Shown piece by piece: positions 3,020-47,387 of a stretch of 64,000 nucleotides of DNA. Location of the stretch: assembly GCA_964582965.1 (NCBI GenBank), contig CAZOUN010000001.1, forward strand, positions 4,745 through 68,744, read 5' to 3'. The notes beneath the pieces are model-generated. The model searched no databases, had not been told where the DNA came from, and was given only the letters and a program-made list of their open reading frames with translations. How positions within the stretch are numbered: the stretch's first letter is position 1; every line of letters starts with the position of its first letter. This DNA comes from an uncultured Anaerolineales bacterium. Its GTDB lineage: Bacteria; Chloroflexota; Anaerolineae; Anaerolineales; UBA11858. Both the position numbers and the translations under genes were made by a program.

Positions 3020-3097
3020 GGGCCTATATCCCCGAGCGAGATGGGACTGCAAAAGAAATTAACTATTGCTGAAAACAATTTATTAAGGAGATCCTTG

Positions 3098-4489: not shown

Positions 4490-4516
4490 GTTTTGGAATC
4501 GAAAAGGATTAATAAC

Positions 4517-14831: not shown

Positions 14832-14903
14832 AGCTTAAGTCTAAAACAAAAAATCCGTGCTGATGAAATTGTCCAGAATATTTAGAAAATGGAGAGTTTA
14901 CAG

Positions 14904-25321: not shown

Positions 25322-26731
25322 ATGAATTATCAAAGAATGTTAGAAACTCTTGATAAAGCCGAAACCGGTCCCATTCTCGAGGAAAAGGATTTTGATAAAA
25401 AGCAGATAGGAGCCGCGATCCAGGAAATCGTCAAGAGATTCGATATCTCTTGGCCAAAAGACATTATGGTTCCTTCAGATGACCAACTCGCCGACCGCTT
25501 ATTTGAAGCGGGGTTGACTCTTGCCGAAGAAAGTGGACTGTTCTGCGTGGATACTGGGCGGCATATGACCTGGACACGCAATGAACTGCTGGATAGATTG
25601 GGAAATATTCCATCTCGAATAACGCTTGGTACTGGCGACGATGAAGTGACTATTAAAAGGCGTTTGCCTGATGAAAATTCGCGAATTGTGGTCAGCGGGG
25701 GAGCATATGGTGTCCCCGTGCCCGAAGATCTCTATCTGCCAGTTATGCTAAGTTATGCTCAAGAACCCAGCCTAGATTTCATTGAAGGACCAATGTTAAC
25801 AACAACTCATGGACGGCCGCCTCGTGCTAACTCACCCTGGGAATCCGTTTGGTGCTGGCAGGAGAAGGATCTTGCGCTGGAAGCAGCTCGACGAGCCGGA
25901 AGACCGGGCATTGCTATTGGGACTGCGGTAGGCTCAGCAAGCGAACTCGGTGAATTGTCAACCATGACTTGTGGTGGATTTAGGACAACTGATAAACACC
26001 ATCTGGTATTTACCAGTGAATTGAAAGTTAACTATGCAGAGCTGACCAAGGCTGTTCATTTTATGCACACGGGTGCAAAAGTACTGGGATACTATAATCC
26101 TATCTTTGGTGGATATGGAGGCGGTGTTGAAGGAATGGCTATCCTGATGGTTGCAGGCCAGATTCTGCTTGATGCCTGTTTCTATACATCAATAGTTAAT
26201 GCTGGACCCGGGCATGCTCATCTCAGTTGTAATAGTTATCCAGCAATGTTATCTGGCCAAGCGCTAGCTTTCCAAGCCTTAAGCCGTAATACGAACTTGC
26301 TGTTTTCGTCTTTCCTTAGACCAACTGCTGGCCCTTGTGTGCCCCACATATTTGATGAGATCGCTGCCATTGTCATAGCTTCAGCGCCATCCGGAATCTC
26401 TTTTATCGAAGGTGTGCATACCGCTACTGGACGATTTGAAAGTCATTGTTCTGGACTTGAAGCGCGTTTCATGGCGGATATCACACATGCTGCTGAAAAA
26501 CTAACCCGGCTTGACGCTGATGGTGTGGTTAAGAAAATTGTGGAGAAGTATGAAGATAAGCATAGAACGATCCAAAAGGGGAAGTCATTTTCTCAATGTT
26601 ACGATCTGGAGTCTTTGAAGCCTACGCCAGAATGGCAAGGGATGTATGAGGATGCTTGCATGGAGATGGAAAAAGAATACGGCCTGATTATTTCTAATCC
26701 CCCCCGTGAACATAACGTTGATAACAAATAA
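25322..26731 (+). CDS. MtmB-family methyltransferase, non-pyrrolysine (paralog 7, class A)
   Basis: Starts 2 nt after the 2Fe-2S subunit stop. Motifs VPSDDQLADRLFEAG, GTGDDEV, GRPGIAIG, IFGGYGGGVEG, NAGPGHAHLSC, C-terminal FSQCYDLESLKPTPEWQGMYEDA. Confidence 0.88.
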   Translation: MNYQRMLETLDKAETGPILEEKDFDKKQIGAAIQEIVKRFDISWPKDIMVPSDDQLADRLFEAGLTLAEESGLFCVDTGRHMTWTRNELLDRLGNIPSRITLGTGDDEVTIKRRLPDENSRIVVSGGAYGVPVPEDLYLPVMLSYAQEPSLDFIEGPMLTTTHGRPPRANSPWESVWCWQEKDLALEAARRAGRPGIAIGTAVGSASELGELSTMTCGGFRTTDKHHLVFTSELKVNYAELTKAVHFMHTGAKVLGYYNPIFGGYGGGVEGMAILMVAGQILLDACFYTSIVNAGPGHAHLSCNSYPAMLSGQALAFQALSRNTNLLFSSFLRPTAGPCVPHIFDEIAAIVIASAPSGISFIEGVHTATGRFESHCSGLEARFMADITHAAEKLTRLDADGVVKKIVEKYEDKHRTIQKGKSFSQCYDLESLKPTPEWQGMYEDACMEMEKEYGLIISNPPREHNVDNK

Positions 26732-26907: not shown

Positions 26908-29178
26908 ATGACGCATAATGTGATTGGAAAACCATCCCCCAACCTAATCAATTATCAGATCCTGACCGGGGGTGCTCACTATTTGGACGATCTGAGCCTG
27001 GAAGGCACACTGGTTGGTAAATTACTTTACAGCCAGCATCCTTGTGCATTGATCAAAAAAATTGATATTGCTAAGGCCAAAAACCTGCCCGGTGTTGTCG
27101 CAGTACTTACCCATGAGGACATTCCCGGTGAGAACAGCTTCTTGCTGCAAACACCAGACCAGCCGGTCTTGATGTCGGACCGGGTGAATTACCTGGGAGA
27201 TGCGGTTGCGGCCGTAGCTGCCGAAACAGAAGAAGCTGCCCAGGCAGCCCTTGCTGCCATTGAAGTGATTTATGAACCTCTGCCGGGTACTTACAATATC
27301 GAGGATTCCATGAATACGGATGCTTCCAAGGTATTGCCCGGTTACGAGAATATTATTCCAGCCAGCACGCACGAACAGGGTGATCTGGAGGCTGGTTTCC
27401 AAGAAGCGGATGTGATCATTGAAAACACGTACCAATCTCAGTTGATCGAACAAGCTTTTCTAGAACCTGAAGGAGCTTTGTCCTATATCGACCCGGAAGG
27501 GAATATGGTGGTATATGCATCTAATCAGGCCCCTAATCGGGACAGGATGCAGATTGCCCGCTCTTTGAATATGCCGGAGCATAAAGTCAGGGTAATCACA
27601 CCTTATGTCGGGGGAGCCTTTGGAGGTAAAGACGAAGTCCACGTCCAGATCCATGCCGCCTTGCTGACTCAGGCAACCGGTAGGCCGGTCCAGATTCTCA
27701 GGACTCGAGAGGAATCCATCCTTACCCACGTTAAACGTCACCCGATCACGGTCCATCACAAGCTGGGAGCAACAAAGGACGGTAAGATCACAGCAGTCAG
27801 CCTCAAGGCTATTGCAGATACAGGTCCTTATGTAAATGCAGGAATACATGTGATGTGGTTTGTTGGAACGGTTGCCAGTGGGCCTTATTATTTGCCCAAT
27901 GTGCGAGTTGAAACTCTTGCCGTAAGAACCAATAATCCGATTGGCGGAGCCATGCGCGGTTTTGGCGGACCTCAAGTCTGTCTGGCCCATGAGGGCCAGA
28001 TGGATGAATTGGCCAAGGCTCTGAACATGGATCCGGTTGAAATCCGCCGTATCAATGCCATCCAGAGCGGCCAGGTCACACCAAATGGAGGTATTGTCCG
28101 CAATGCGGATGCGGTCCCTGCCAGTATTGATGAAGCAGCTCGTATGATTGGCTGGGAGAAACGTGATCGAATCGACCGACAACCGGAGCCGCGCTTGAGA
28201 AGAGGCTGGGGAATGGCAGCGAGCTGGTTTGTGATTGGATTGGGAAGGGGACAGGATAACGCAGGCGCGATCGTTGAAATGGCTCCGGATGGCTCGGTTT
28301 TGATTCGGACCGGTGCTGTAGAAATGGGTCAGGGAGTGTTCACGACTCTGGGGGCTATGGTGGCCGAAAACCTGGGTATTGATCTGGGATCGATCAGGGT
28401 CATTGGCCCGGATACCGATATTACGCCGGATGCGATGCAAACCGCAGCCTCTAGGCAGACGTTCATGTCAGGAAATGCTGTCAATAAAGCTTCCCTGGTG
28501 ATCAGGAATAGCCTGCTGGAAACAGCCGCAGAGGAAACTGGCCTGCCGATAGAGATCCTGGATCTCAAGAGTGGACAGCTCCGGGCGGAAGGTGAGGAAT
28601 TATCAATTTCCATTCCGGAACTGGCTGCCAAGGCTACGGTTGCCAATCGCCCCATGTATGCCAATGGGTTTTATGTGATGGATTTCCCTGAAGAAAAAAC
28701 CAATGAAGGCACTTTTTATGCAGTTGGACCCTCAGCATTCGGCACCCAGATTGCGCAGGTCCTGGTGGATATTGAAACCGGGGAAGTGCAAATTGAGAAG
28801 CTAATAGCAGTCCAAAATGTTGGCAAGATTATCAATTACGGGGGCGCCTATGGTCAGATGGAAGGAGGCTGCGTGATGGGCATAGGCTATGCCCTGATGG
28901 AAGACCTGGTAGTTGAACAGGGAAAGACCCTGAATGATTCCCTGGAAAGCTACCTCATTCCAACCGTGATGGATATCCCGGATATTGAGATCAAATTACT
29001 AGAGATCCCCGAGCCCTTTGGTCCATTTGGTGCCGTGGGTATTGGTGAACCATCTATGATGGGAACTGCTCCAGCGATTGCCAATGCAGTGTCAGATGCA
29101 ATAGGAAAAAGGATGACCCAAATACCATTGACCCCGGAACGAGTCCTGGCGGCCATTGAAGGAGAAGACAATGAATAA
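26908..29178 (+). CDS. Molybdenum hydroxylase large (molybdopterin) subunit, xanthine dehydrogenase family, set 2
   Basis: 756 aa with GGAFGGKDE, GGAMRGFGGPQ, GIGEPSM. Clear paralog of 9878-12145. RBS GGAAGGAGG. Confidence 0.88.
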   Translation: MTHNVIGKPSPNLINYQILTGGAHYLDDLSLEGTLVGKLLYSQHPCALIKKIDIAKAKNLPGVVAVLTHEDIPGENSFLLQTPDQPVLMSDRVNYLGDAVAAVAAETEEAAQAALAAIEVIYEPLPGTYNIEDSMNTDASKVLPGYENIIPASTHEQGDLEAGFQEADVIIENTYQSQLIEQAFLEPEGALSYIDPEGNMVVYASNQAPNRDRMQIARSLNMPEHKVRVITPYVGGAFGGKDEVHVQIHAALLTQATGRPVQILRTREESILTHVKRHPITVHHKLGATKDGKITAVSLKAIADTGPYVNAGIHVMWFVGTVASGPYYLPNVRVETLAVRTNNPIGGAMRGFGGPQVCLAHEGQMDELAKALNMDPVEIRRINAIQSGQVTPNGGIVRNADAVPASIDEAARMIGWEKRDRIDRQPEPRLRRGWGMAASWFVIGLGRGQDNAGAIVEMAPDGSVLIRTGAVEMGQGVFTTLGAMVAENLGIDLGSIRVIGPDTDITPDAMQTAASRQTFMSGNAVNKASLVIRNSLLETAAEETGLPIEILDLKSGQLRAEGEELSISIPELAAKATVANRPMYANGFYVMDFPEEKTNEGTFYAVGPSAFGTQIAQVLVDIETGEVQIEKLIAVQNVGKIINYGGAYGQMEGGCVMGIGYALMEDLVVEQGKTLNDSLESYLIPTVMDIPDIEIKLLEIPEPFGPFGAVGIGEPSMMGTAPAIANAVSDAIGKRMTQIPLTPERVLAAIEGEDNE

Positions 29179-30544
29179 TCGTGGAAGGCTGCTGGAAGTA
29201 CTGAACAAGGCTGAAACTGGTCCTATTATTGACGAAAAGGAATTCGAAGCCAAACTTATCACACAGACAATTCGCAAACTTATTAAAAAGTATGATCTAA
29301 AGTTTGACAAATCCGTCTTGGTGCCAGCCAAAGACGAGTTGGCAGACCGTATCTTTCAGGCAGGTTTGGAATTTGCGGTTGAAGTGGGTATGTTCTGTCA
29401 GGACACCAGCCGCAGGATACTATGGACTGAAGGTGAATATCTCCGCGGTCTGGAAAGCTGTAGTGGGAAGGCTGTGATGGGTACAGGTAATGATACGGTT
29501 GAAATTATTGCCCGGACACCTGAATCGAATATAATTCCAACTTTTGTGGGCGGCCCCTTTGGTGTACCGGTTCCCGAGGATATGTTTGTTCCTATTATGC
29601 TGAGTTATGCCCAGGAACCACTGATCGATGTGATAGAAAATCCAACCATCGAAAAAGTATATGGTTATCCTGTTAAGGCCGATTCGCCCTGGGAAGTGTT
29701 GGGTGGCTGGCGAGAAGCTGAGCTTGCTTTTGAAACAATCAATCGAGCCGGACGGCCCGGTATGCCGATTGGCTGTATTGAAATTTCACCTACTGCCCTG
29801 GCCCAGATTTCTGCCGCCTCCTGGGGAGGTGTCCGTCCCAGCGACTGGCACCATGTCTCAGCGCCAAGTGAATTTAAAACAAATTACGACCTGCTTTCAA
29901 AGACAGCCCATATCACTCGAATCGGCGCTAACATGGAAGGCTACCTGAATATTATCTATGGCGGATTCCTGGGCGGTGCGGAAGGAGTGGCAATAGGTTT
30001 GGCCGCCGGCATGATCGTTGTCAACCAAAACTACATGGGCACGACCATCAGCGCCAGTTCGGCCCATCCCTTCCTGCACAGCGATGCGACCCCGGAATCT
30101 ATCTGGGCCCAGAGCCTGGCATTCCAGGCTATCTCACGCAATAGCAAAATGTTGACCGCTTCCCTCTGCAAACCAGCAGCAGGGCCAGGAACAAAGACGC
30201 TTCTCTATGAATGTGCGGCTTTTGTTTTGTCCGGCGTGGCTTCTGGTCTGGCCGTACCCCAAGCTGCTATGACAGCTACTGGAACAAACCGCTGCCATTG
30301 CAGTGGGTTGGAATCCCGTTTCAGTGCTGAGGTGTCCCGGGCGGCGGCAGGAATGAGCAGGGAACAGGTCGATGAGATTACCAAAAAACTAATGGCGATC
30401 TATGAAGACGATTTACCCAACAAGCCTGTGGGTAAACCATTCCAGGAAGTATATGATATGAAATCTCTCCAGCCAACAGCGGAGTGGAACGGTTTATACG
30501 AAGAAGTAAAAGAGGAATTAATGGGTATGGGAGTGCCCCTCTAA
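29171..30544 (+). CDS. MtmB-family methyltransferase, non-pyrrolysine (paralog 8, class B)
   Basis: GGAGAAG (29161) precedes ATG 29171. The start overlaps the large-subunit stop by 8 nt (ATGAATAA, 29171-29178). The N-terminus MNNRGRLLEVLNKAETGP aligns with paralog 6. Also GRPGMPIG, IYGGFLGGAEG, SSAHPFLHS. Confidence 0.88.
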   Translation: MNNRGRLLEVLNKAETGPIIDEKEFEAKLITQTIRKLIKKYDLKFDKSVLVPAKDELADRIFQAGLEFAVEVGMFCQDTSRRILWTEGEYLRGLESCSGKAVMGTGNDTVEIIARTPESNIIPTFVGGPFGVPVPEDMFVPIMLSYAQEPLIDVIENPTIEKVYGYPVKADSPWEVLGGWREAELAFETINRAGRPGMPIGCIEISPTALAQISAASWGGVRPSDWHHVSAPSEFKTNYDLLSKTAHITRIGANMEGYLNIIYGGFLGGAEGVAIGLAAGMIVVNQNYMGTTISASSAHPFLHSDATPESIWAQSLAFQAISRNSKMLTASLCKPAAGPGTKTLLYECAAFVLSGVASGLAVPQAAMTATGTNRCHCSGLESRFSAEVSRAAAGMSREQVDEITKKLMAIYEDDLPNKPVGKPFQEVYDMKSLQPTAEWNGLYEEVKEELMGMGVPL

Positions 30545-30637: not shown

Positions 30638-30666
30638 TTGACAGGAAACCGGGTTCGGGTTAAACT
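30638..30666 (+). promoter_or_regulatory. Candidate sigma70-type promoter in the 263-bp gap
   Basis: TTGACA (30638-30643), 17-nt spacer, TAAACT (30661-30666). A 14-bp palindrome, AACGAAGCTTCGTT (30626-30639), abuts the -35 element. Confidence 0.4.
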
Positions 30667-30807: not shown

Positions 30808-32157
30808 ATGTCATCAATTCTTATCAAGAATGGCTATCTCGTTACCATGGACGCCTCGGATCGCAGGGGATATTTTGATATATATATCGAAGATAAATCC
30901 ATTAAGGAAATCGCCCCTGAAATCAACAAAAAGGCCGATAAAGTGATTGATGCCAAGGACCAGTTGATTCTGCCAGGATTTGTGCAGTCCCATACCCACC
31001 TCTGCCAGAGTCTTTTAAGAGGCCAGGCGGATGACCAGCCCCTGCTGGAATGGCTTGATACCATTACTGGTTTGGAGTTTCGGCATTCCCCGGAGACGTT
31101 GTATGCCTCGGCGCGGATTGGATTAGCAGAAATGATCAAATCGGGGACAACCTCGATCATTGACATGGGCACACTGCATCATCAGGACAGTGTCTTTGAA
31201 GCGATCCTTGAATCTGGGATGCGAGCCCAGGCGGGAAAGGCAATGATGGATCTAACCGAAAACCTGCCGCCGCTTTTACAGGAGACCACAGAAGATTCCA
31301 TAAATGAAAGTGTGGATTTGATGCATCGCTGGCATGGCAAAGCCGATGGCAGGATCCGCTATGGATTTGCTCCCCGCTGGCAGTTATGGAATACTACTGA
31401 GCTGCTGCAGGAGATCAAACAGGAAGCCGATAATCATCCCGGGGTGGGAATTCATGGCCATGCAGGCGAGATAGAGTTTGAGATCAAAGCCATGATCGAA
31501 CAGACCGGGTACAGGAACTTCGTTTATCTTGAGAAGATCGGTGTGGTTGGTCCCAATGTCCAAATGGCTCACTGCATTTGGCTGGATGAAGATGAATATC
31601 GGGTTATGGCTGAAACAGGATCCAACGCCCTGCATTGCCCCTGCTGCAACGCCAAACTTGGCTCCGGGATCGCCAAGGTGCCGGAAATGCTAGAGAAGGG
31701 TATCAATGTTTCCCTAGGTTCTGATGGAGCCCCCAGCAACAATAATATGGATATGTTCATTGAAATGCGCCTGGCATCGCTAGTTCATAAATACAGGCTG
31801 GGTGCTGAAAAATTACCCGCGGAAGATGTGCTGCGAATGGCTACTATGGGCGGCGCAAAATCACTTGGCATGCAAGATCAAATAGGCTCACTGGAAGAAG
31901 GTAAAATAGCTGATATCATCATTCTGGATGATGGCGGCTTGTATGCGGCGCCAATCCGAGATTTTGAGGAAGACAATATTGTCAAGCGTTTGGTATCTTC
32001 CTACCAATCGGCCAGCGTGCAGACCAGTATAATTGATGGCCAATTAGTGATGGAAGATCGCCAACTGCTTACTATGAAAGAAAATGAGATTCTCAGCGAT
32101 GGGAAAATTGCTCTTGCTGCTCTGTGGGCCAGGAAACGGGCGGCTGAAGTAAACTAA
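30808..32157 (+). CDS. Amidohydrolase, MtaD/AtzA/guanine-deaminase-like subfamily (copy 3)
   Basis: 449 aa with PGFVQSHTH, GIHGHAGEIE, MAHCIWLD, LGSDGAPSNNN. RBS CAGGAGA. Confidence 0.82.
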   Translation: MSSILIKNGYLVTMDASDRRGYFDIYIEDKSIKEIAPEINKKADKVIDAKDQLILPGFVQSHTHLCQSLLRGQADDQPLLEWLDTITGLEFRHSPETLYASARIGLAEMIKSGTTSIIDMGTLHHQDSVFEAILESGMRAQAGKAMMDLTENLPPLLQETTEDSINESVDLMHRWHGKADGRIRYGFAPRWQLWNTTELLQEIKQEADNHPGVGIHGHAGEIEFEIKAMIEQTGYRNFVYLEKIGVVGPNVQMAHCIWLDEDEYRVMAETGSNALHCPCCNAKLGSGIAKVPEMLEKGINVSLGSDGAPSNNNMDMFIEMRLASLVHKYRLGAEKLPAEDVLRMATMGGAKSLGMQDQIGSLEEGKIADIIILDDGGLYAAPIRDFEEDNIVKRLVSSYQSASVQTSIIDGQLVMEDRQLLTMKENEILSDGKIALAALWARKRAAEVN

Positions 32158-32194: not shown

Positions 32195-33049
32195 ATGGAA
32201 ACAATTGTCAAAAGTGAAACAAAAGAAGTTGTTATCAGTATTGATCGGCCGTTTGTGATCATCGGTGAAAAAATCAACCCGACTGGCCGGAAGAAATTGG
32301 CCGCGGCTCTGAAGGGTGGTGATTTTGAGTATGTAAAACAAATTGCTCTTCGGCAGGTTGCAGCGGGTGCAGATATCCTGGATGTGAATGTCGGTGTTCC
32401 CGGGGTGGATGAAGTTGACCTTCTGCCTAAAGTAGCAAAAATTGTTTCTGAAACAGTAGATGTCCCCCTTTGTCTTGATTCTGCCAACCGGGATGCACTG
32501 GCTGCTGCGCTGGCTGTGCTGCCTGGCCGACCCCTGGTAAATTCAGTGAATGGAGAAGAAGATTCAATGGAAGCAGTCCTTCCTGTGATCAAGGAATTTG
32601 GTGTGCCGGTCATCGCTTTGGTAATGCATGATGATGGCATTCCCAATGATGCAGATACCCGGGTTGCTGTGGCAGGAAAGATTATTGAACGAGCTGCCAA
32701 ACTGGGCATTCCTGCAGAAGATATTGTGGTTGATCCCCTGGTCCTCACAGTCGGTGCAGATAGCAGTTCCGGTGCAGTTACCCTGGAAACCGTCAGGCGT
32801 ATAAAAGAAGAATTTGCCGTGAATATGAACCTTGGTGCCAGCAACGTTTCCTTTGGCCTGCCGGATCGACACACCCTTAACCAGGCATTTTTAGCATTGG
32901 CGATTGGTGCTGGAGCGACCTGCGCCATTACAGATCCAATGAAATTGACCCCGATTATCCATGCCTCTGATTTGTTGATAGGCCGGGACAAATTTGGATC
33001 TCGATATATTGGGTACTGGCGAGATCACAAACCCGAAGAAGCAAAATAA
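32195..33049 (+). CDS. Pterin-binding methyltransferase (methyl-corrinoid:tetrahydrofolate type; MtrH/AcsE/MtgA-like)
   Basis: 284 aa with IGEKINPTG, ILDVNVG, LVNSVNGEE, VDPLVL, GASNVSFGLP. This is the motif series of the pterin-binding TIM-barrel fold. Confidence 0.85.
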   Translation: METIVKSETKEVVISIDRPFVIIGEKINPTGRKKLAAALKGGDFEYVKQIALRQVAAGADILDVNVGVPGVDEVDLLPKVAKIVSETVDVPLCLDSANRDALAAALAVLPGRPLVNSVNGEEDSMEAVLPVIKEFGVPVIALVMHDDGIPNDADTRVAVAGKIIERAAKLGIPAEDIVVDPLVLTVGADSSSGAVTLETVRRIKEEFAVNMNLGASNVSFGLPDRHTLNQAFLALAIGAGATCAITDPMKLTPIIHASDLLIGRDKFGSRYIGYWRDHKPEEAK

Positions 33050-33052
33050 TCT

Positions 33053-33739
33053 ATGAAGATATGGCGGGTTGAAGATTTAAACATAACTGTGGATGGCGTT
33101 CTGCGGGGGCAGGGCGCCGATCCTGATATCATCCGTTCCCGAAGTCCGCGGTTGGTTGCTGTTGCAGAAAAAGCCCTGGCCTCTGTGATCGATTTACTTG
33201 AACCAGAGGTCTTGGTTAAGGAATTCAAGGTTACTGGTTTCAAACATGACAGCCTAGAACTTGAGGGAGGAAAGAAAATATCTGGCCCGCTGGTCACTGG
33301 GCACCTGGTTGGCGCAAGTTATATCACAGTAGCTGTTTGTACTGTTGGCTCCAAGATCGATGGTTACGCTTCAGACGTCATGGATGATGATATTGTGTTG
33401 GGGTTAGCGGTGGATGGTGTTGGATCTGCCGCGGTGGAGTCACTGGCCAATGCGGTCTGTAGGCAGATCGAAATGAAGGCAGCGGCAGATGGATTTCAAA
33501 CAACCATTCCACTGAGCCCAGGTATGATAGGCTGGGGTGTTCAGGAAGGACAACCGCTGATTTTTGACCTGGTTGATCCGAATCAAATTGGAATGTCCCT
33601 GACCCCTTATCATCTGATGGTTCCCCGTAAATCTCTATCAATGATTATAGGTATTGGTGCAGGAATAAATTCAGGCGAGTGCATTTGTGATTATTGCGCC
33701 ATGCGTGAGACCTGCCGATACCAGGAGCATAACAAGTAA
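33053..33739 (+). CDS. MetH activation-domain-like protein (vitamin B12-dependent methionine synthase activation region family)
   Basis: 228 aa. LSPGMIGWGVQEGQPLIFDLV...IGMSLTPYHLMVPRKSLSMIIGIG matches the SPGYGDW...LMxPxKS pattern. C-terminal Cys cluster CICDYCAMRETC. Confidence 0.6.
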   Translation: MKIWRVEDLNITVDGVLRGQGADPDIIRSRSPRLVAVAEKALASVIDLLEPEVLVKEFKVTGFKHDSLELEGGKKISGPLVTGHLVGASYITVAVCTVGSKIDGYASDVMDDDIVLGLAVDGVGSAAVESLANAVCRQIEMKAAADGFQTTIPLSPGMIGWGVQEGQPLIFDLVDPNQIGMSLTPYHLMVPRKSLSMIIGIGAGINSGECICDYCAMRETCRYQEHNK

Positions 33740-33743
33740 ACCC

Positions 33744-35564
33744 ATGAATAAAAAACACACTTTAGTAGTTGATATGCAGCCGGTGGGACGTCGGATAGAA
33801 ATTGAAAAGGGAAAGACCCTGCTGGACGCATCCCGTGAAGCTGGCGTAGGTATTGTATCCCTTTGTGGAGGAGAAGGCTGGTGTAATAGCTGTTTGGTGA
33901 GAATTGCCAGTGGTGAGGTTAATCCACCCACTCAATCAGAAATCGATTCATTAGGTCCGGATAAAATTGATGAAGGATACCGATTAGCATGTCAGGCAAT
34001 ACCGCTCTCAGATGTACGGATCGATATACCGCCGGATTCTCTCTCAACCCCGCAGCGGTTACAGGTCGAAGGCAAGGATTTTGATATTGATATTGCTCCA
34101 ATAGTTAAAGTGGTTGATCTGGAACTGGCACCCCCGGAGATTAAGGATTTACGGGCAGATGCAGGCAGGGTCATAGAAGCTTTGGCTGCTGCGGGACATC
34201 CTGATGTTCACATTGATTTACCCATCCTGGAAATTTTATCCGATCTGATCAGAAAATATAAATGGTCTGCCCGTTTTGTCTTGCGGGAAAACGAAATCAT
34301 TGCAGTTCTTCCTCGGGAAGCGGAGATTTTTGGAATTTCTGTTGATATTGGGACCACGAAGGTAGCTGTGTACCTGGTTAATCTGTCCACCGGACAGATC
34401 GTGGAAAAAGTCGGTGAAATGAACCCCCAGATCGCTTATGGAGAGGACATTATCAGCCGTATATCCTATACTCGGGATAATGAGGACGGCAGGGAAAAAC
34501 TTCAAAAAGCAGTCGCGAATACATTAAACGATAAGATCCACGAGCTGTGCAAGCTGGCTGATATTCAGCAAGACCAGGTTGTGGATTCGGTCATCGTTGG
34601 CAATACAGCCATGCACCATTTATTCGCTGGAATGCCGGTCGGACAGCTGGTATTTGCCCCCTATGTTCCTGCTTTGAATCAATCGATCGATCTGCGCGCT
34701 AGAGAGCTGGGGGTCAATATGGCCCCGGGAGCATACATCCATTTACTGCCCAACATTGCTGGTTATGTTGGCGCCGATCATGCTGCAGTGATCCTGTCCA
34801 CAGAATTGTGGAAGACAAAAGAAACTATACTGGCTATCGATATTGGTACAAATACAGAGATCTCCCTGGTTTCAAAAGGGAAAATATCCAGTTGTTCCTG
34901 TGCCTCTGGCCCCGCTTTTGAAGGTGCTCACATCACTCATGGTATGCGGGCAGCACCAGGAGCTATTGAACGTGTTCAGATCAAGGACGGGGAAATTAAA
35001 TTATTTACCATAGACAATCAGCCGCCAGTGGGGATCTGTGGTTCCGGTATTTTGGATGTTGTGGCGGAAATGAAAACAGCAAACTTGATGGATGAAAAAG
35101 GAGCAATTAAGGCTGACAGCCACTTTACTCGTCCAGACGTAAAAAATTTGAATGAACTGTTGTTGGTGCCGGAGAAAGAATCTGGCAATCAGAAGGACAT
35201 CACGATTTCCCGGAAGGATGTGAATGAGATCCAATTGGCAAAAGCCGCTATCCGGGCTGGCCTGGATATTTTACTAGCCGAAGCCGGGATTGGGGCAGAA
35301 GATGTGGACAAGGTTCTGGTAGCTGGCGCTTTTGGGACATATATCAGCGTCCCCAATGCCATTGAAATTGGCATGTTCCCCAAAATCCCACTGGGCTATT
35401 TCCAACAGGTAGGCAATGCGGCTGGTATGGGTGCTGTACAGGCTTTGATCTCGATGAAACACAGGCATTTGATCTCTGAAGTATGTAAAGATGTGGACTA
35501 TATCGAGTTAACCACCTATGGTGATTTTCAGAAACTGTATATGAATGCTATGTATTTGCGTTAG
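33744..35564 (+). CDS. RACo-type reductive activase of corrinoid proteins (2Fe-2S ferredoxin domain + ASKHA/DUF4445 ATPase)
   Basis: ATG 33744 lies 4 nt after the upstream stop; the ORF-track start at 33687 overlaps the upstream gene. N-terminal LCGGEGWCNSCLV...ACQ ferredoxin motif, then VDIGTTKV, GNTAMHHLF, AIDIGTNTE. Confidence 0.85.
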   Translation: MNKKHTLVVDMQPVGRRIEIEKGKTLLDASREAGVGIVSLCGGEGWCNSCLVRIASGEVNPPTQSEIDSLGPDKIDEGYRLACQAIPLSDVRIDIPPDSLSTPQRLQVEGKDFDIDIAPIVKVVDLELAPPEIKDLRADAGRVIEALAAAGHPDVHIDLPILEILSDLIRKYKWSARFVLRENEIIAVLPREAEIFGISVDIGTTKVAVYLVNLSTGQIVEKVGEMNPQIAYGEDIISRISYTRDNEDGREKLQKAVANTLNDKIHELCKLADIQQDQVVDSVIVGNTAMHHLFAGMPVGQLVFAPYVPALNQSIDLRARELGVNMAPGAYIHLLPNIAGYVGADHAAVILSTELWKTKETILAIDIGTNTEISLVSKGKISSCSCASGPAFEGAHITHGMRAAPGAIERVQIKDGEIKLFTIDNQPPVGICGSGILDVVAEMKTANLMDEKGAIKADSHFTRPDVKNLNELLLVPEKESGNQKDITISRKDVNEIQLAKAAIRAGLDILLAEAGIGAEDVDKVLVAGAFGTYISVPNAIEIGMFPKIPLGYFQQVGNAAGMGAVQALISMKHRHLISEVCKDVDYIELTTYGDFQKLYMNAMYLR

Positions 35565-35591
35565 TTTTGGTATTGCTATTTCAGAGACTGG

Positions 35592-35975
35592 ATGATGGAA
35601 AAAAATTTCTTGGCTGTAAATGGCTCATTGATGCGCGGTTTGGCTCTAAACCAAAATCTGGTGGACGCCCGGGCTCAATTTGTGCAGGAGTCTAAAACAA
35701 GCGCGAATTACCGTCTGTGGTCTATCGATGACTCTTACCCAGCAATGCTGCGAGATGAAGGCGAAGGAACCGAAATCGACCTCGAGATCTGGGAAATACC
35801 CCTTGAAGGGCTTCTTGATGTGCTTAAAAAGGAACCTCCCGGATTATGCATGGGTAAGATTGAAATCCAGGATGGTGAATGGGTTTTTGGGATTCTTGGA
35901 GAATCCTATCTGTGTCATGGCAATAAAGAGATTTCCTCGTGGGGTGGTTGGAAGAAGTATCTGAACAAAAAATAG
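35592..35975 (+). CDS. GGCT-fold protein resembling the stand-alone C-terminal domain of allophanate hydrolase
   Basis: 127 aa. LAVNGSLMRGLALNQNL...YRLWSI..YPAML....IDLEIWEIP...PPGLCMGKIEIQDGEWVFGILGE follows the pattern I recall for the allophanate-hydrolase C-terminal / gamma-glutamylcyclotransferase-like fold. Confidence 0.5.
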   Translation: MMEKNFLAVNGSLMRGLALNQNLVDARAQFVQESKTSANYRLWSIDDSYPAMLRDEGEGTEIDLEIWEIPLEGLLDVLKKEPPGLCMGKIEIQDGEWVFGILGESYLCHGNKEISSWGGWKKYLNKK

Positions 35976-36029
35976 GGATCGGCGAGTCCCTGAGTATTGA
36001 TAAACAACCGCTAACCTGGGTTAACAAAA

Positions 36030-36058
36030 AAAGGCTGCAAAATCAATTTGCAGCCTTT
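36030..36058. terminator. Bidirectional intrinsic terminator at the junction of the two convergent arms
   Basis: AAAGGCTGCAAA (36030-36041) / TTTGCAGCCTTT (36047-36058) form a perfect 12-bp stem with a 5-nt loop. An A-run lies upstream and a T-rich run downstream (GAATTTT). Confidence 0.75.
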
Positions 36059-36077
36059 GAATTTTAAGATCCAAGCG

Positions 36078-36734
36078 TCACTTCTTCATCAGGGTTTTAC
36101 AAAGTTCTACTGCACCAGCTGCATCCGCCGAATATCCATCACTGCCAACTTCTTTGGACCATTCTTCAGAAACGGCACCACCGCCAACCACAATAAAGTA
36201 TTCCTCGCGTTTGCGGACCTCAGAGAACAGATTAATGGTTCTTTTCTGAGCTGGCAGCGTGGTTGTCATTAAGGCAGAAAGCGCGACAATGTCAGCGTTT
36301 TCCTTTTCTGCTGCATCTAGGAACGCGCTGGCTCGAACATCACGGCCCAGATCGACCACTGTAAACCCATGAGATTTTAAGAGCATGCCGACTATGTTGC
36401 GTCCAATATCGTGCATATCTCCTTCAACCTGTCCCAGGATAATAGTCCCCTTGCTGAGAGAAGGCTGGCCCGCATCCAGGGTTGCTTTTTCGACGATTGC
36501 AGTGATTGCTTCGGCTGCTTCTCCAGCCATCATTAATTCTGGCAAGAATATCTCGAATTCCTGGAAACGCCGGCCAATCTCGGTTAATGTGGGAACTAAT
36601 ATTTCTTCAATGATTGCCAGTGGTTCCATGCCACCTTCAAGTGCTGCTTCGGTCAGGGCTTTTGCCTCATCGCTCAGCCCATTTTTTAGTGCATCACCAA
36701 GATCAGAGATCACTTTTTCGTTTTTGTTTGCCAT
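36078..36734 (-). CDS. Corrinoid methyl-carrier protein 3
   Basis: 218 aa with GDMHDIGRN (DxHxxG), LSALMTTT, VVGGGAV. Confidence 0.88.
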   Translation of the reverse strand: MANKNEKVISDLGDALKNGLSDEAKALTEAALEGGMEPLAIIEEILVPTLTEIGRRFQEFEIFLPELMMAGEAAEAITAIVEKATLDAGQPSLSKGTIILGQVEGDMHDIGRNIVGMLLKSHGFTVVDLGRDVRASAFLDAAEKENADIVALSALMTTTLPAQKRTINLFSEVRKREEYFIVVGGGAVSEEWSKEVGSDGYSADAAGAVELCKTLMKK

Positions 36735-36773
36735 ACTGCCTCCAGGGTTCTATTATATGCTGGTTCCTGATTA

Positions 36774-38150
36774 TTAATCGAAGGATAAGCCCCATTTTGC
36801 GACTTCGTTCTTTACATCGTCATACATGCCCTGCCATTCCGCGGTGGGCTGGATGGTTTTTAGATCGTAAACATCTTTAAAGTGCTTCCCATATGGTTTC
36901 TGAGTAAGATCGTTCTCATATTTTTTATAAGCTTTTTGAACGATCTCTTCGGCCTGACTTCGTGAAATTTTACTAGCTGCGGACAATAACTCGCCAGTAA
37001 ATCTAGCTTCTAATCCACTGAAGTGCCCGGTGATCGAACCCGTCGCGGATCGTGGGCCCAGGATGCGGCTGCCGCCAGATACGGTCATCATCACGGTGAG
37101 GGCTACACATTCATATAATAGCGTTTTCGTGCCAGGGCCGCCAACAGGCGTATTGGTCAAATTAGTCATCAAATGCGAATTCCTGGCGAGGGCCTGGAAT
37201 GACAATCCTGAGGAAATTAATAGTTCCTTTCCTGTATCGTTGAAATTAAAGGGGTGGGTCGGTGAGGTGCCTACACATGTGGCCATGAAGAACACATTTA
37301 GGGCAATCATAGCTGCTGTGATTAGGACAGCCTGTCCATCCATACCTCCACCCAATCCGCCATATATAGGGTTGGCATAGGGGTCGACTACACCATCCCG
37401 CATCAAGATATGGGTGAGTTTGTTTAGAATTTCAAAATTGGTTTTGAGCTCAGAAATAATTCCAAAAGTATGTAGGTCAGTTTGACGCAACCCACCAGGT
37501 CCATCTGCGGATAATTGCCCTATATCGCTAATGCTGGAGCCTACCCCTGTGAAAGCCATTCCTGGCCTTCCAGCTCTGCGCATGGATTCCAGAGTTAATT
37601 CAACTTCACGCCAGGAGGAGAGAATTTCCAATGGAGAGCGAGTTCTGATATCGTACCCGTAAATATTGGTCAGGGTGGGCGCCATGGTGACATCCACTTC
37701 GGGTTCCTGGATGTAGCTGATCATGGAAGGTACAAAAAATTCATCCTCGATCGGCGTCCCAATGGAGGACCCCATCAATAATGGCCGCCTGGAATCTTCT
37801 ACGTTCCGGGCATATTCCTCTACAGCGTCTGTTCCCGCTCCAACTCTGACCCGATCGGGAGCATATTTAAGAATATCTTTGATTTCTTGAACACTGAATT
37901 TGATGACGCGATTTGTGGTCTGACAATAAACGCCGCATTCTGCCAGAAAATCAACTGCAGCTTCCCAGACTCTGTCAGCCAGGGCATCATCCTGATTGAT
38001 GATCTGGTCCTGATTTATCTGAATATCATATTTCTTCACAACCCGGGAAAGGCCCTGGGTCACGTGTTGATCATTAAAGTCCTCTTCTTCCATTAATGGC
38101 CCTGAGAGGCTTCTTTCAATAATATCCAGCAACCTTGTTGTATGTCTCAT
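36774..38150 (-). CDS. MtmB-family methyltransferase, non-pyrrolysine (paralog 9, class-B-related singleton)
   Basis: 458 aa with NQDDALADRVWEAA, GAGTDAV, GRPGMAFTG (Thr at the Pyl-aligned site), IYGGLGGGMDG, SPTHPFNF, C-terminal FKDVYDLKTIQPTAEWQGMYDDV..WGLSFD. Flanked on both sides by corrinoid protein genes. Confidence 0.88.
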   Translation of the reverse strand: MRHTTRLLDIIERSLSGPLMEEEDFNDQHVTQGLSRVVKKYDIQINQDQIINQDDALADRVWEAAVDFLAECGVYCQTTNRVIKFSVQEIKDILKYAPDRVRVGAGTDAVEEYARNVEDSRRPLLMGSSIGTPIEDEFFVPSMISYIQEPEVDVTMAPTLTNIYGYDIRTRSPLEILSSWREVELTLESMRRAGRPGMAFTGVGSSISDIGQLSADGPGGLRQTDLHTFGIISELKTNFEILNKLTHILMRDGVVDPYANPIYGGLGGGMDGQAVLITAAMIALNVFFMATCVGTSPTHPFNFNDTGKELLISSGLSFQALARNSHLMTNLTNTPVGGPGTKTLLYECVALTVMMTVSGGSRILGPRSATGSITGHFSGLEARFTGELLSAASKISRSQAEEIVQKAYKKYENDLTQKPYGKHFKDVYDLKTIQPTAEWQGMYDDVKNEVAKWGLSFD

Positions 38151-38166
38151 TTATTCTCTCCCATAA

Positions 38167-38799
38167 TTAATTACTCAATAGTTCTTTAACGAGAGCAACT
38201 GCATCAATAGCATTATCTCCGTATCCGTCTGCCCCATGTTCGTCTGCCCATTCGTTACTGACCGGTCCACCGCCCACAATGACCTTGGTGGAAGGGCTGG
38301 ATTCCATAAACTCAATCACATCCTGAACAAAAGGTAAAGACGGGAGCATCAATGCCGAGAGAGCAATAATGTCAGCATCAAATTCCTTGGCTTGCTTGAC
38401 GATCGTTTGAGTGGATGCATCCACGCCCAGGTCATGGACTTCGAAGCCATTAACCTCCAACATTGCTTTGACAATATTCTTGCCGATATCGTGGAGGTCT
38501 CCTGATACAGTGGCGATGATAATTTTTCCTTTGGATTTAGTGGTTTGATCTGCTGTTAGATGGGGTTGGATTGCTTTATGGATGGCTTTTACGACTTTTG
38601 AAGCATTAACCATTTCTGGAAGGAATATTTCCAGACGGCTGAATTTTTGACCAATATCATCCAGTAGGGGCTCGATGGATTCGGAAAAGAGCAGCAGGGG
38701 ATCTATTCCTCTTGTGATCAGGCGGACAGCTTCTGCTGTTCCAGCTTCTGTATCGCCAGACAGGATGGATTTTTCTAAGGATTCATACGGTGATGACAT
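38167..38799 (-). CDS. Corrinoid methyl-carrier protein 4
   Basis: 210 aa with GDLHDIGKN, LSALMLPS, IVGGGPV. Confidence 0.88.
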   Translation of the reverse strand: MSSPYESLEKSILSGDTEAGTAEAVRLITRGIDPLLLFSESIEPLLDDIGQKFSRLEIFLPEMVNASKVVKAIHKAIQPHLTADQTTKSKGKIIIATVSGDLHDIGKNIVKAMLEVNGFEVHDLGVDASTQTIVKQAKEFDADIIALSALMLPSLPFVQDVIEFMESSPSTKVIVGGGPVSNEWADEHGADGYGDNAIDAVALVKELLSN

Positions 38800-38833
38800 A
38801 CGGTGCCTCCGAAATTTGAAAAGAAAGCTTGAA

Positions 38834-39586: not shown

Positions 39587-39591
39587 TTTTG

Positions 39592-40992
39592 TTAAGCTGT
39601 CTTCTTTACGTCTTTCCAGCGATTGTTGATATCCAAACCGATCTTAACAATTGCATCACTTACTGTGTGGTATTTGTCCAGCCATTCGTTAGTAGGTTCT
39701 AGGATGTCAACATTATAGATCTCAGAGAAAGGCTGGCCAGCCGGCGGATTTTTGTGGGATTCTTCGTATTTGCTCAAGAATTCAAGCACATATCCATTGG
39801 CTTCTTCTCTGGTCATACCCAGGGATGAATGGGATACCTGGGCGGTGAAACGATTTTCCAGGCCGCTGGTATGGTCTTCTGAGCTGCCGCCAGTGGCGCC
39901 AACGCCGCCTTGATGGATTCCGCTCACAGTACAGGCGACAGAGGCTGCAGCAATTTCCCACAGGACTTGTTCGGTTCCTAATCCTGCTTGGGTGTAAATG
40001 GCATTGATTGATTGAATGGGAGTGTTCAGCGCCAACGCCTGCCCTCCGGCAGCATATCCCCAGAGCCCCATTCGATCAGTGTCTGTGCTGTGGAGGAGAT
40101 GCATATGTCCATATACATGATAGGAGGCCTGGTAACACATAACGCCCAATAAATGACAAGCGATAATAATGATTACGGTGCCTACAGGCCCGCCGCCCAA
40201 ACCACCTACCAGGGGTGTCATCAGATCTACAATATGCATGCCCAGTGTATTCATGCGGGCTACGCGCGAAAGCTGGTCGTAATCAGTTTTTAATTCCACC
40301 ATCTGGGAGATCAGTAGCCCGTCGGTGGAACGCATGCCCCACTCCGGGTTATAGGTTGCCATTTTTCCTGCACATGTTAGAGGAGATGCGACATCATTGA
40401 TGTGCATTTCTGGCCTGCCAGCTTTTCTGGTCGCTTCCCGAGCAACCGCTGCATCGCGCTGGACAGCAAGAATTTCTAACGGAGTACCGGGAATGATCAT
40501 TTCACCCTGGTAAGTAGATACTGAGCCGGCTCCGAGGCAATCGACCAGGGGTTCCTGGGCGCAGCTCTCCAGGATGAAGGGGTGGTATTTCTCGCTGCAA
40601 GGAGTTCCTGTGGGACCGCTGTGGATCACACAGGGGATATCGCTTTCTACACCCCGGTGTTGCATAACCACCGCATCTTTTCCTGCACCGACTGTAAAAC
40701 TTCTGGGGACCAGCGCCACGGCTTCTTCAACTTCATCCCTTGAAAACATGATCCTGCGCTGGGTGCTCATGTTATAGACACCCATTTCAAGGAATAGATC
40801 CAATCCTGCTTGATAGAGACGATTGGCGAGATCATCATCGGCAGGTACCAAAACCTGCGGGTCATAAACCAGACCATATTCCTTGATCAGTTCTGGAATC
40901 CGCTTGGTGATCTTCATATCAAAATCTGATTCTTTGATATAAGGACCTGCTTCTGAACGTTTGACAATCTCGGGCAGCCAATTATGTTTCAC
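39592..40992 (-). CDS. MtmB-family methyltransferase, non-pyrrolysine, divergent class C (paralog 10)
   Basis: GTG start at 40992 after AAGGAG. Motifs VPADDDLANRLYQAG, GAGKDAV, GRPEMHIND (Asn at the Pyl-aligned site), LVGGLGGGP in place of GGYxGG, C-terminal FSEIYNVDILEPTNEWLDKYHTV..IGLDI. Confidence 0.82.
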   Translation of the reverse strand: MKHNWLPEIVKRSEAGPYIKESDFDMKITKRIPELIKEYGLVYDPQVLVPADDDLANRLYQAGLDLFLEMGVYNMSTQRRIMFSRDEVEEAVALVPRSFTVGAGKDAVVMQHRGVESDIPCVIHSGPTGTPCSEKYHPFILESCAQEPLVDCLGAGSVSTYQGEMIIPGTPLEILAVQRDAAVAREATRKAGRPEMHINDVASPLTCAGKMATYNPEWGMRSTDGLLISQMVELKTDYDQLSRVARMNTLGMHIVDLMTPLVGGLGGGPVGTVIIIIACHLLGVMCYQASYHVYGHMHLLHSTDTDRMGLWGYAAGGQALALNTPIQSINAIYTQAGLGTEQVLWEIAAASVACTVSGIHQGGVGATGGSSEDHTSGLENRFTAQVSHSSLGMTREEANGYVLEFLSKYEESHKNPPAGQPFSEIYNVDILEPTNEWLDKYHTVSDAIVKIGLDINNRWKDVKKTA

Positions 40993-42088: not shown

Positions 42089-42089
42089 A

Positions 42090-45992: not shown

Positions 45993-47387
45993 TTAGTCCC
46001 AGGGCCCGACGGTGAATTGCAGTCCCCATTTGGCCAGGTCTGCTTTGACCCGGCGGTAGCATTCTTTCCATTCTTCGATCGGCTGCAGAGATTTCAGGTC
46101 ATAAGCTTCTTGGAATGGTAAACCTCGTTTGGGAGTATCAAATGTGGACTCATATTTCTCGAGGCATTTAAGGGCAATTTCATTTGCCTTTTCGCGGGTG
46201 ATGCCGCTATTTGCGGTTGCTACACCAACTTCACCCTGGAAACCAGCTTCCAGGCCGGTATGGTGGTTGGTTTCAAATCCACCGGTGGCGCCCACACCAT
46301 GTTGGGTGTAACCACAAACAGTACTGATGACTGCGTGCTGGGCGACTTCGTAAAGCAGCTCATCAGTCACGGGGCCGGAAACACAGAAGGGATCACAGGT
46401 CCAGACGATATGGGAATTGCGGGCCATGGCCTGTCCGGCCATTGCAAGCACATACATACCCCATTCATCCGAGTTGTTGGCTCGTTTGATGTGGGTGATG
46501 CTGAGGTAATGATAGTCAGCAAAGTACGCAATTACACCTAGGAGTGTTTCTGCTACGGAAACAACGGCAACGCCGTCAGGACCGCCGCCTATGCCGCCGG
46601 TCAGGGGAGTCATGAGGTTAATAATATGTCCGCCATAATTGAGCAGGTGGGGAACACGGTTGAGCTGATCGTCGTCGATTTTTAATTCGCACATCTGGGC
46701 TACAAGACGTCCGTCGCAGGGGCGCAGACCGTTGATAGGTTCACTAGCGGCCATTTTGCCGATGGCGGTCATGCCAGTCGCGGCATCGCCAATATGCATG
46801 CCGGGTTTTCCAACACGTCGAACAGCCTCGCGAGCTGTAGCGGCATCACGCTGAACAGCCATGACTTCCATGAGGGTGCCGGCCATGATGTCGTATCCAT
46901 TAAAGGTCCGGGTGGCGCCAGATTCTATTGCGTCCACAAATGGTTCCTGGGCGTAGCTGGTCAGGTTAGCCAGGTAGTATTCTTCGTCGCAAGCCTGTCC
47001 AGCAGGACCGGTCAGATTGAGAGGGGGATTGGGATCTTCAATGTTCCTGTGTTTGGCAATAACCATGTCTTTTCCCTCGCCGAGATAGAGTGTGTCGGGA
47101 GCGAGTCGGAGAGCGTCAAGGATCTCTTCTTTGGAAAATTTAATTACGCGCTGGGTGTCGAGGTGGTATGCACCACAATCGACCAACAGCTGCAAACCAG
47201 CCTGGAAGACGCGGTCAGCCATAGCGTCGTCAGTGGGGCAGACATTCTTGGGGTCGTATTTGATGTCGTATTCTTTGAGCAGTTCCTGCACTCGTTTGGC
47301 AAGCATGAGGTCATATTCCACCTCTTTCATAAACTTCCCGCTGCGGGAACGCTGGTAAATTTCTATTAATCGTTCTCTTGTTAACAT
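45993..47387 (-). CDS. MtmB-family methyltransferase, non-pyrrolysine, divergent class C (paralog 11)
   Basis: 464 aa with CPTDDAMADRVFQAG, GEGKDMV, GKPGMHIGD, LTGGIGGGP, C-terminal FQEAYDLKSLQPIEEWKECYRRV..WGLQF. Confidence 0.82.
   Translation of the reverse strand: MLTRERLIEIYQRSRSGKFMKEVEYDLMLAKRVQELLKEYDIKYDPKNVCPTDDAMADRVFQAGLQLLVDCGAYHLDTQRVIKFSKEEILDALRLAPDTLYLGEGKDMVIAKHRNIEDPNPPLNLTGPAGQACDEEYYLANLTSYAQEPFVDAIESGATRTFNGYDIMAGTLMEVMAVQRDAATAREAVRRVGKPGMHIGDAATGMTAIGKMAASEPINGLRPCDGRLVAQMCELKIDDDQLNRVPHLLNYGGHIINLMTPLTGGIGGGPDGVAVVSVAETLLGVIAYFADYHYLSITHIKRANNSDEWGMYVLAMAGQAMARNSHIVWTCDPFCVSGPVTDELLYEVAQHAVISTVCGYTQHGVGATGGFETNHHTGLEAGFQGEVGVATANSGITREKANEIALKCLEKYESTFDTPKRGLPFQEAYDLKSLQPIEEWKECYRRVKADLAKWGLQFTVGPWD

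Follow-up and report, generated by a model that had tools for sequence, protein, structure and literature searches.

A stand-alone relative of the MetH reactivation domain encoded between a corrinoid methyltransferase and a RACo-type activase in Anaerolineales

Four tightly packed genes on the plus strand of a 64,000-nucleotide stretch of DNA (the window) from an uncultured Anaerolineales bacterium (assembly GCA_964582965.1, contig CAZOUN010000001.1) encode, in this order, a methyl-corrinoid:tetrahydrofolate methyltransferase (MT2), a stand-alone homolog of the MetH reactivation domain (here called X), a RACo-type reductive activase and a stand-alone allophanate-hydrolase C-domain (AH_C; Table 1). 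They form the 3' end of about 30 co-directional genes, a 36-kb plus-strand arm. The reading frames and their junctions agree with the tight packing described in an earlier note on this DNA: the MT2/X junction reads TAA-tct-ATG (3 nt), the X/RACo junction TAA-accc-ATG (4 nt), and the spacer between RACo and AH_C measures 27 nt. The RACo start is placed at ATG 33744; the mechanically called frame begins at GTG 33687, and the orthologs agree with the ATG. Corrinoid methyltransferase systems drive the anaerobic use of methylated compounds and all depend on the Co(I) state, for which two repair solutions are known, the S-adenosylmethionine (AdoMet)-dependent activation domain of MetH and the ATP-dependent activases of the RACo/RamA type. 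Here, a derivative of the MetH activation domain shares an operon with RACo, and the two are usually adjacent across the Anaerolineales, a very abundant and poorly cultured order.

The two enzymes that flank X belong to well-defined families. MT2 matches PF00809 over residues 25-246 (108 bits, cutoff 25.5) and passes NF005719 (310 bits, cutoff 259). It does not reach the AcsE equivalog NF040758 (123.7 bits, cutoff 370), it does not pass the MetH models, and no genes for carbon monoxide dehydrogenase/acetyl-CoA synthase were found in the window by Pfam and family scans. The activase exceeds the cutoffs of PF00111, PF17650, PF17651 and PF14574, and the cysteines of its N-terminal [2Fe-2S] ferredoxin domain are C41, C47, C50 and C83. 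Its scores lie below the cutoffs of the AcsV equivalog (472 vs. 800) and of the RamA subfamily TIGR04270 (147 vs. 500, with model positions 2-412 of 534 matched). The domain architecture is identical to that of RACo from Carboxydothermus hydrogenoformans and of the O-demethylase activating enzymes, although the clients of the window activase would be small MtgC/MtbC-like carriers and not a corrinoid iron-sulfur protein, as for C. hydrogenoformans RACo. The three central assignments of the earlier note (pterin MT2, MetH-activation-like protein, RACo) are therefore upheld by domain scans and by the fold and homology of X.

X passes no Pfam or NCBIfam model; its match to PF02965, the MetH activation domain, is restricted to residues 152-198 and remains below the cutoff (13.5 bits, cutoff 25, E 0.05). 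A phmmer search against PDB sequences returns a single match, 1J6R, the structure of TM0269 from Thermotoga maritima (E 2.5e-9; when a profile of 73 sequences is used, 4e-12). The AlphaFold2 model of X (pLDDT 90.6, pTM 0.86) retrieves the same structure first in Foldseek (TM 0.67/0.77), followed by the reactivation domains of Thermus, E. coli and human MetH. TM0269 and MetH reactivation domains take up all of ranks 1-19 (probability 1.00), and the matches to the MetH domains (1MSK, 8SSE, 9SSV) have E values of 3e-8 to 1e-4 and TMq values of 0.59-0.67. The earlier label of X as MetH-activation-like thus holds in both homology and fold. A BLAST search of the loci with the E. coli MetH activation domain gives no match, as the domain is too divergent, and the link between X and MetH comes from profile and fold methods only.

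TM0269 is the stand-alone reactivation protein of the methionine synthase TM0268 and, like X, is a separate protein, of about 200 aa. The two have in common an SPG motif, an IF.LL helix and an M.PRK.(L/I)(S/T) strand. They differ in that TM0269 lacks the C-terminal tail of X and adjoins MetH, whereas X lies between MT2 and RACo or alone. TM0269 is said, in work by Huang et al. from 2007, to need AdoMet. Compared with the activation domain of MetH itself, X has the same fold but is about 100 residues shorter and carries an added cysteine tail. The partner of the MetH domain is a His-on B12 domain with a DxHxxG motif, which is also present in the five corrinoid carriers of the window.

The residues of MetH that contact AdoMet (taken from PMC1282579) were located in X by a MAFFT alignment of E. 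coli MetH 897-1227 (L086), TM0269 and X homologs. Four of the seven are replaced, two of them invariantly: in the RxxxGY motif, R1134 and Y1139 correspond to P153 and M158, both invariant in 73 close homologs; TM0269 keeps R..PGY and X has P..PGM. The other replacements are E1101 to N133 and Y1130 to F147, and the D946 region is not alignable. The C-terminal tail of X aligns opposite the adenine-contacting segment of MetH, K-Y1189-Y1190, where the alignment is weak. This tail holds the cysteine cluster pointed out in the earlier note, which proves near-universal: C212, C215 and C221 (CxxCx5C) are present in 135-136 of 138 representatives of the family (50%-identity clusters), C96 in 91 and C136 in 79, while 27 representatives carry the three tail cysteines only. 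None of the five conserved cysteines occurs in TM0269. A CxxCx5C motif combined with one distal cysteine is the pattern of the [4Fe-4S] site in WhiB-like proteins. By fold and sequence, X is a descendant of the reactivation domain that has lost its AdoMet residues and gained a putative cysteine metal site, most likely for an Fe-S cluster.

A profile search of 1.84 billion representatives returned 245 clusters (counted at 50% identity) with E<=1e-30, 2,601 with E<=1e-10 and 5,450 with E<=1e-3; searching again with the alignment of X gave essentially the same 120 proteins. The closest homologs are 85-91% identical and, where named at all, are annotated as hypothetical proteins. Relatives of X are encoded on 134 stretches of a species-level genome collection. 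The best 80 of these constitute the synteny survey (numbered with L; the genome of the window is outside the 80), and they come almost entirely from metagenome-assembled genomes of Anaerolineales/Chloroflexota, with one Acidobacteriaceae and one Spirochaetales metagenome-assembled genome. A literature search found no described MetH-activation-like protein in corrinoid methyltransferase clusters. X represents an undescribed, widely conserved family related to the MetH repair domain, for which Pfam and NCBIfam have no model. Apparent fusions of X to other domains, in the long open reading frames of L062, L063, L069 and L075, are artefacts of upstream read-through. P0219 (392 aa) is the only homolog with a long N-terminal extension (about 160 aa, with a CGC motif), which could be a fused partner domain.

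The window proteins were compared with the 80 loci by tblastn. Of the 73 loci that can be evaluated upstream of X, 37 have MT2 immediately before it, and of the 67 that can be evaluated downstream, 28 have RACo immediately after it. Both sides of X can be evaluated in 61 loci; here the order MT2-X-RACo is found in 15 (five more have a RACo-like gene nearby), MT2-X only in 10, X-RACo only in nine (plus one) and X alone in 21. Gene spacing in the relatives is tight or overlapping, for example a 20-nt overlap in L004 and a 3-nt gap followed by an 8-nt overlap in L087. MT2-X-RACo is thus a conserved Anaerolineales cassette. X is paired about equally often with MT2 alone and with RACo alone, which points to the corrinoid carrier as the common client. 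The carrier is also the binding partner of the ancestral MetH reactivation domain. X therefore most likely acts on corrinoid carriers, and not specifically on MT2 or RACo.

A few loci depart from the common pattern in other ways. X or the cassette also adjoins MttB-family (PF06253) methyltransferases (L052, 5714-9313; L087, 1-373), so the back end is not specific to MtmB-type front ends. In L045, the 235-aa product of the gene after X (10605-11312) has the Fer2 and linker domains of RACo and no others, which may reflect truncation or decay of the activase or a fault in the assembly. The MT2-X-RACo trios of L037 and L040 come from one metagenome-assembled genome (CBDAFF01); over 2.9 kb their nucleotide sequences are 89% identical, the result either of a recent duplication or of the binning of two strains together. 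As they may be strain variants, the double trio was not used as evidence against a single hub.

We hold with moderate confidence that MT2-X-RACo is a corrinoid service cassette for the local carriers, in which X docks on the carriers; the particulars of the role of X are held less firmly. In such a system, MT2 would move the methyl group from methyl-Co(III) carriers to tetrahydrofolate, and RACo, with ATP and its [2Fe-2S] cluster, would reduce carriers again once they have fallen to Co(II). X may dock in the repair step on the cobalamin face of the His-on carriers, like the MetH activation domain, with its metal or Fe-S site placed where AdoMet once bound. By holding the cofactor reducible, by relaying an electron, or both, it could allow RACo to act on several different small carriers, and a single cassette could then serve all carriers in the vicinity in a hub-and-spoke fashion. 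A further step, which we put forward tentatively and regard as doubtful, would make X a new class of corrinoid-repair factor: the AdoMet site would be replaced by an Fe-S cluster that faces the upper side of cobalamin and acts as an electron conduit or cap for RACo on small carriers without a cluster, and the PF02965- and PF14574-type systems would form one machine. If X is a redox-active docking factor, this would explain how one activase serves many small carriers and would offer a way into the reconstitution of the island's 11 orphan MtmB enzymes, which are of the non-pyrrolysine type.

Several points weigh against such a cassette. The methyltransferase system of Eubacterium limosum contains no X-like protein and needs none for reconstitution in vitro (PMC8604678), so X is not mechanistically required in general. 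The tail of X is modelled at lower confidence than the rest (pLDDT 62-78). A URO-D-like gene of the island (12163) could encode a second acceptor-side enzyme, and further MT2 or activase genes may exist elsewhere in the genome. Solo X genes lie beside CorA, EamA, aldo-keto reductase, IMPDH and DUF885 genes, and MttB or URO-D clusters lie close to some of them. Among the closest relatives, X is found directly upstream of DegV-Tex, the right flank of the window, as X-DegV (L001, L012, L014) or MT2-X-DegV (L006, L009, L010), with MT2-X-RACo-Pyr_redox in L008. In the corresponding part of the window (33053-49754), X and DegV are separated by RACo, AH_C and the entire 13.5-kb minus arm. The island of this lineage thus expands and contracts around X as the fixed point, and the persistence of X beside DegV-Tex while MT2 and RACo vary indicates that it has a role for which the cassette is not needed. 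Accordingly, the proposal in the earlier note that X is an accessory of the hub is only partly upheld: MT2 and RACo are its conserved partners, but the frequent solo genes show that X is not tied to the hub.

The chemistry of X can be read in two other ways. Its cysteines might bind structural zinc, X being a non-catalytic scaffold or a regulatory subunit of MT2 with no redox repair role. Three cysteines with a variable fourth ligand suit a zinc site as well, the AdoMet motif is lost and MT2-X occurs without RACo; however, the loci with X-RACo but no MT2 and those with X alone mean that X is not an obligate MT2 subunit, and its ancestral domain is dedicated to cobalamin repair. We consider this reading very improbable. 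Alternatively, X could be a self-sufficient, ATP-independent repair enzyme working in parallel to RACo, in which an Fe-S cluster in the tail replaces flavodoxin and AdoMet, bound in a non-canonical way, traps Co(I) as methyl-Co(III). The reactivation-domain fold and the three near-universal cysteines with a variable fourth are compatible with this, and the amidohydrolase encoded upstream is closest to the 5'-deoxyadenosine/methylthioadenosine/S-adenosylhomocysteine deaminase family and could remove S-adenosylhomocysteine. TM0269 was reportedly already considered by Huang et al. in 2007 to differ somewhat from E. coli MetH in its mode of AdoMet binding. The replaced AdoMet contacts make a self-sufficient enzyme quite unlikely, and the conserved, translationally coupled pairing of X and RACo argues for cooperation. 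Moreover, PF02965 and PF14574 have been treated as alternative B12-reactivation systems (GapMind preprint), and redundancy within one operon is less parsimonious than a division of labor.

A more conventional role is that of a housekeeping partner, with X reactivating a methionine synthase that has no activation domain of its own. In that case, MT2-X(-RACo) would belong to a multi-part methionine synthase, from which the catabolic substrate-specific methyltransferases (MT1) would only borrow MT2. Precedents exist. TM0269 is the only solved homolog of X; a stand-alone, unlinked reactivation domain is known in Bacteroides (BT0249), and Phaeobacter inhibens has a three-part methionine synthase with a Fer2-DUF4445 activase and a DUF1638 accessory of unknown role (PMC5764234; GapMind preprint). 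The P. inhibens system resembles the window in its separate pterin-binding protein, small corrinoid protein and RACo-like activase with an accessory. It differs in that DUF1638 is unrelated to X and in that a homocysteine methyltransferase piece is essential. With E. coli MetH 1-340 as the query, no homocysteine-binding domain is found in the window, and within 10 kb one is found in only two of the 80 related loci. L027 holds an intact 295-aa stand-alone homocysteine S-methyltransferase-domain reading frame (19487-20374) 7 kb downstream of the cassette, and L085 a frameshifted one (6950-7691, minus strand) directly upstream of carrier-MT2-X-RACo; both are possible multi-part methionine synthases. 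The many solo X genes, and MT2-X pairs in housekeeping neighborhoods without MtmB or carrier (L009, L010, L015, L055, L061), also fit a housekeeping role. On the other hand, the RxxxGY motif kept by TM0269 is invariantly lost in X, none of the loci has a MetH gene next to X, at least two MtmB or carrier genes surround X in 18 loci (including L004, L005 and L087, which are not part of the survey), and MT2 scores as a member of an AcsE/MtgA-like family and not as MetH. A partnership with methionine synthase is therefore unlikely. Were X a MetH partner only, the finding would reduce to a correctly annotated ordinary back end.

Table 1. Positions of the genes and sites of the window discussed in the text
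Feature	Position	Strand	Remarks
MT2, methyl-corrinoid:tetrahydrofolate methyltransferase, pterin-binding TIM barrel	32195..33049	+	PF00809 E 7e-31
X, stand-alone MetH reactivation-domain homolog (TM0269-like), 228 aa	33053..33739	+	C-terminal CxxCx5C, C96 and C136
RACo-type ATP-dependent reductive activase	33744..35564	+	[2Fe-2S] ferredoxin, linker, middle and ASKHA domains
Stand-alone allophanate-hydrolase C-domain (AH_C), GGACT-like fold, 127 aa	35592..35975	+	PF21986 AH_C E 6e-38, 130 bits
Promoter-like site TTGACA-17-TAAACT	30638..30666	+	10/12 consensus matches; consensus only, not significant by itself
Amidohydrolase, 5'-deoxyadenosine/guanine-deaminase family	30808..32157	+	PF01979 E 3e-74; NF005557 518 bits vs. 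cutoff 522
12-bp GC-rich hairpin between convergent arms	36030..36058	.	A-run upstream, T-run downstream
Corrinoid carrier 1, B12-binding_2 and B12-binding	8699..9361	+	DLHDIG motif
Corrinoid carrier 2	14889..15605	+	DMHDIG
Corrinoid carrier 3	36078..36734	-	DMHDIG
Corrinoid carrier 4	38167..38799	-	DLHDIG
Corrinoid carrier 5	47445..48104	-	DIHDIG
MtmB-family MT1 candidate, C-terminal part only (window start cuts the frame)	17..877	+	
MtmB-family MT1 candidate (non-pyrrolysine)	3041..4489	+	
MtmB-family MT1 candidate (non-pyrrolysine)	4493..5896	+	
MtmB-family MT1 candidate (non-pyrrolysine)	5918..7306	+	
MtmB-family MT1 candidate (non-pyrrolysine)	15629..17005	+	
MtmB-family MT1 candidate (non-pyrrolysine)	17130..18506	+	
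MtmB-family MT1 candidate (non-pyrrolysine)	25322..26731	+	
MtmB-family MT1 candidate, full-length	29156..30544	+	PF05369 E 7e-94, no internal stop
MtmB-family MT1 candidate	36774..38150	-	PF05369 E 9e-92
MtmB-family MT1 candidate (non-pyrrolysine)	39592..40992	-	
MtmB-family MT1 candidate (non-pyrrolysine)	45993..47387	-	
Divergent URO-D/MtaA-CmuA-like methyltransferase, 409 aa	12163..13392	+	PF01208 E 8e-19; NF004889 53 bits vs. cutoff 244

For a census of the window, reading frames of at least 150 aa were clustered all-against-all and one member of each paralog group was scanned against Pfam. The totals are 11 MtmB-family frames (one cut by the window start), five corrinoid proteins, one PF00809 protein and one RACo, which reproduces the count in the earlier note of a sole MT2 and a sole activase among 11 MT1 candidates and five carriers. 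The MT1 candidates match PF05369 (MtmB) and are not MttB. Their frames span model positions 4-450 with no internal stop, and no in-frame UAG (pyrrolysine) codon interrupts the MtmB-family frames, as it would in pyrrolysine-dependent MtmB; uninterrupted frames over the whole model identify them as non-pyrrolysine MtmB homologs. No function was established for such homologs until 2026, when the first, MtqB, was shown to act on tetramethylammonium and choline (PMC13044021). The His-on DxHxxG motif is present in all five carriers. The count of MT1 candidates in the earlier note stands, but it overlooked the divergent methyltransferase at 12163, which has a weak URO-D/MtaA-CmuA match in its C-terminal half. 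Its ortholog in L013, 79% identical, heads a compact cluster. From its sequence, this protein may be either a further MT1 or an alternative MT2.

The counts of the window fit a ratio of 1:1:5:11 for MT2, RACo, carriers and MT1s. Since a single cassette stands against several MT1s and carriers, all local carriers are most likely served by it, and hub-and-spoke sharing is plausible at this locus. The same asymmetry recurs in the relatives: each 20-kb locus (±10 kb) has at most one MT2, X and RACo, with up to three MtmBs and five carriers, and a one-to-many ratio of back end to front ends is repeated in L013, L022, L029, L068 and L087. L087 (X 71% identical) repeats the whole design, with MttB, carrier, Bmp transporter, carrier, MT2, X, RACo and AH_C, followed by a convergent arm of carriers, MtmBs and GntR, and then DegV. 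Instead of a single hub, other MT2 or activase genes elsewhere, or the 12163 enzyme, might serve the carriers, and the MT2-X-RACo genes (32195-35564) might serve the adjacent carriers only. The window covers 64 kb of a 115-kb contig in a larger genome, the MtaA-like methyltransferase of the island is conserved in L013, and the cassettes of L028, L043 and L064 have divergent RACo-like genes (35-38% identity) nearby. Against this stand the presence of one MT2 and one RACo across 64 kb, the recurrence of the ratio in other loci and the shared back ends established by experiment elsewhere (PMC8604678), which together render separate back ends distinctly improbable.

Methanogens offer one example of sharing, in which MtbA and RamA serve three different methylamine carriers. 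In E. limosum, the adjacent MtqA and RamQ serve MtpB, MtcB and MtyB via MtqC, and those four proteins alone reconstitute the system (PMC8604678). As in the window, one methyl-corrinoid:tetrahydrofolate methyltransferase and an adjacent ATP-dependent activase act for several MT1s. However, E. limosum has one shared carrier (MtqC) where the window has five, and its MT1s are of the MttB family and those of the window of the MtmB family. Because sharing has already been demonstrated in this organism, the hub-and-spoke part of the proposal is not new. The back end itself is a known kind of system; what is new is the X family and its place between MT2 and RACo.

The island (1-49570) contains other enzymes in addition to the MT1s and carriers. 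It encodes a cytosine-deaminase-like protein (1766-3019), three amidohydrolases of the 5'-deoxyadenosine/guanine-deaminase family (13405, 18515, 30808), two xanthine-dehydrogenase-like Mo enzymes (7312/8197/9878 and 24843/26908), two Bmp/PnrA-type ATP-binding cassette importers and three GntR/UTRA regulators. The presence of nucleobase-type enzymes and transporters among MtmB paralogs and carriers suggests that N-methylated nucleobases or nucleosides are demethylated; substrates of this class are not known for the MtmB family. Horizontal acquisition of the island was considered and set aside: composition gives no signal, and the GC content is 0.44-0.50 throughout.

The amidohydrolase gene ends 37 nt before MT2, and the promoter-like site lies within the 264-nt gap upstream of it. 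With so short a distance and such a site ahead of the amidohydrolase, the four genes are probably not a transcription unit of their own. The site is likely the start of the unit that contains them, and the amidohydrolase is probably the first gene of a five-gene operon, amidohydrolase-MT2-X-RACo-AH_C. Orthologs of this enzyme (77-85% identity) occur upstream of the cassette in L016, L019, L022, L024, L029 and L032, where they directly precede X, or MT2 where present; in L022 the ortholog is about 5 kb upstream of MT2. The amidohydrolase is a member of the substrate pathway and not part of the corrinoid service. At the other end, the hairpin between the convergent arms is stable on both strands (-19.6 kcal/mol on the plus and -18.8 on the minus strand; z -4.8/-4.2), in keeping with the strong bidirectional terminator of the earlier note, but a terminator consensus scan calls it for the minus strand only. 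It terminates the minus arm and plausibly the plus arm too.

The fourth gene, placed within the shared module and called a GGCT-fold protein in the earlier note, does match GGACT, but more weakly than the allophanate-hydrolase C-domain, which is the better assignment. The 127-aa protein matches the whole of PF21986 and corresponds to the C-terminal part of full allophanate hydrolases (TIGR02713 positions 441-562, NF006043 474-596; 91-96 bits vs. cutoffs of 511/487); an amidase-signature N-domain is not matched in it. AH_C follows RACo in only four of the 80 loci (L016, L019, L024, L029), and in L087 outside the survey, which makes it a co-transcribed passenger of the substrate pathway, outside the conserved back end. 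A small YdcZ-type membrane-protein frame separates RACo from AH_C in L024, and a similar gap of about 470 nt is present in L016, L019 and L029. The idea that AH_C travels with the 30808-type amidohydrolase is weakened by L087, where AH_C follows RACo with no such amidohydrolase. Homologs of AH_C are widespread in cyanobacteria and proteobacteria under the name "allophanate hydrolase-related protein" and lie in unrelated neighborhoods (e.g., Sneathiella). NCBI gives some cyanobacterial stand-alone AH_C proteins (P0375, P0387, P0390) the name "glutamyl-tRNA amidotransferase" even though no amidase domain is present in them, and the name is probably carried over from the annotation of full-length allophanate hydrolase.

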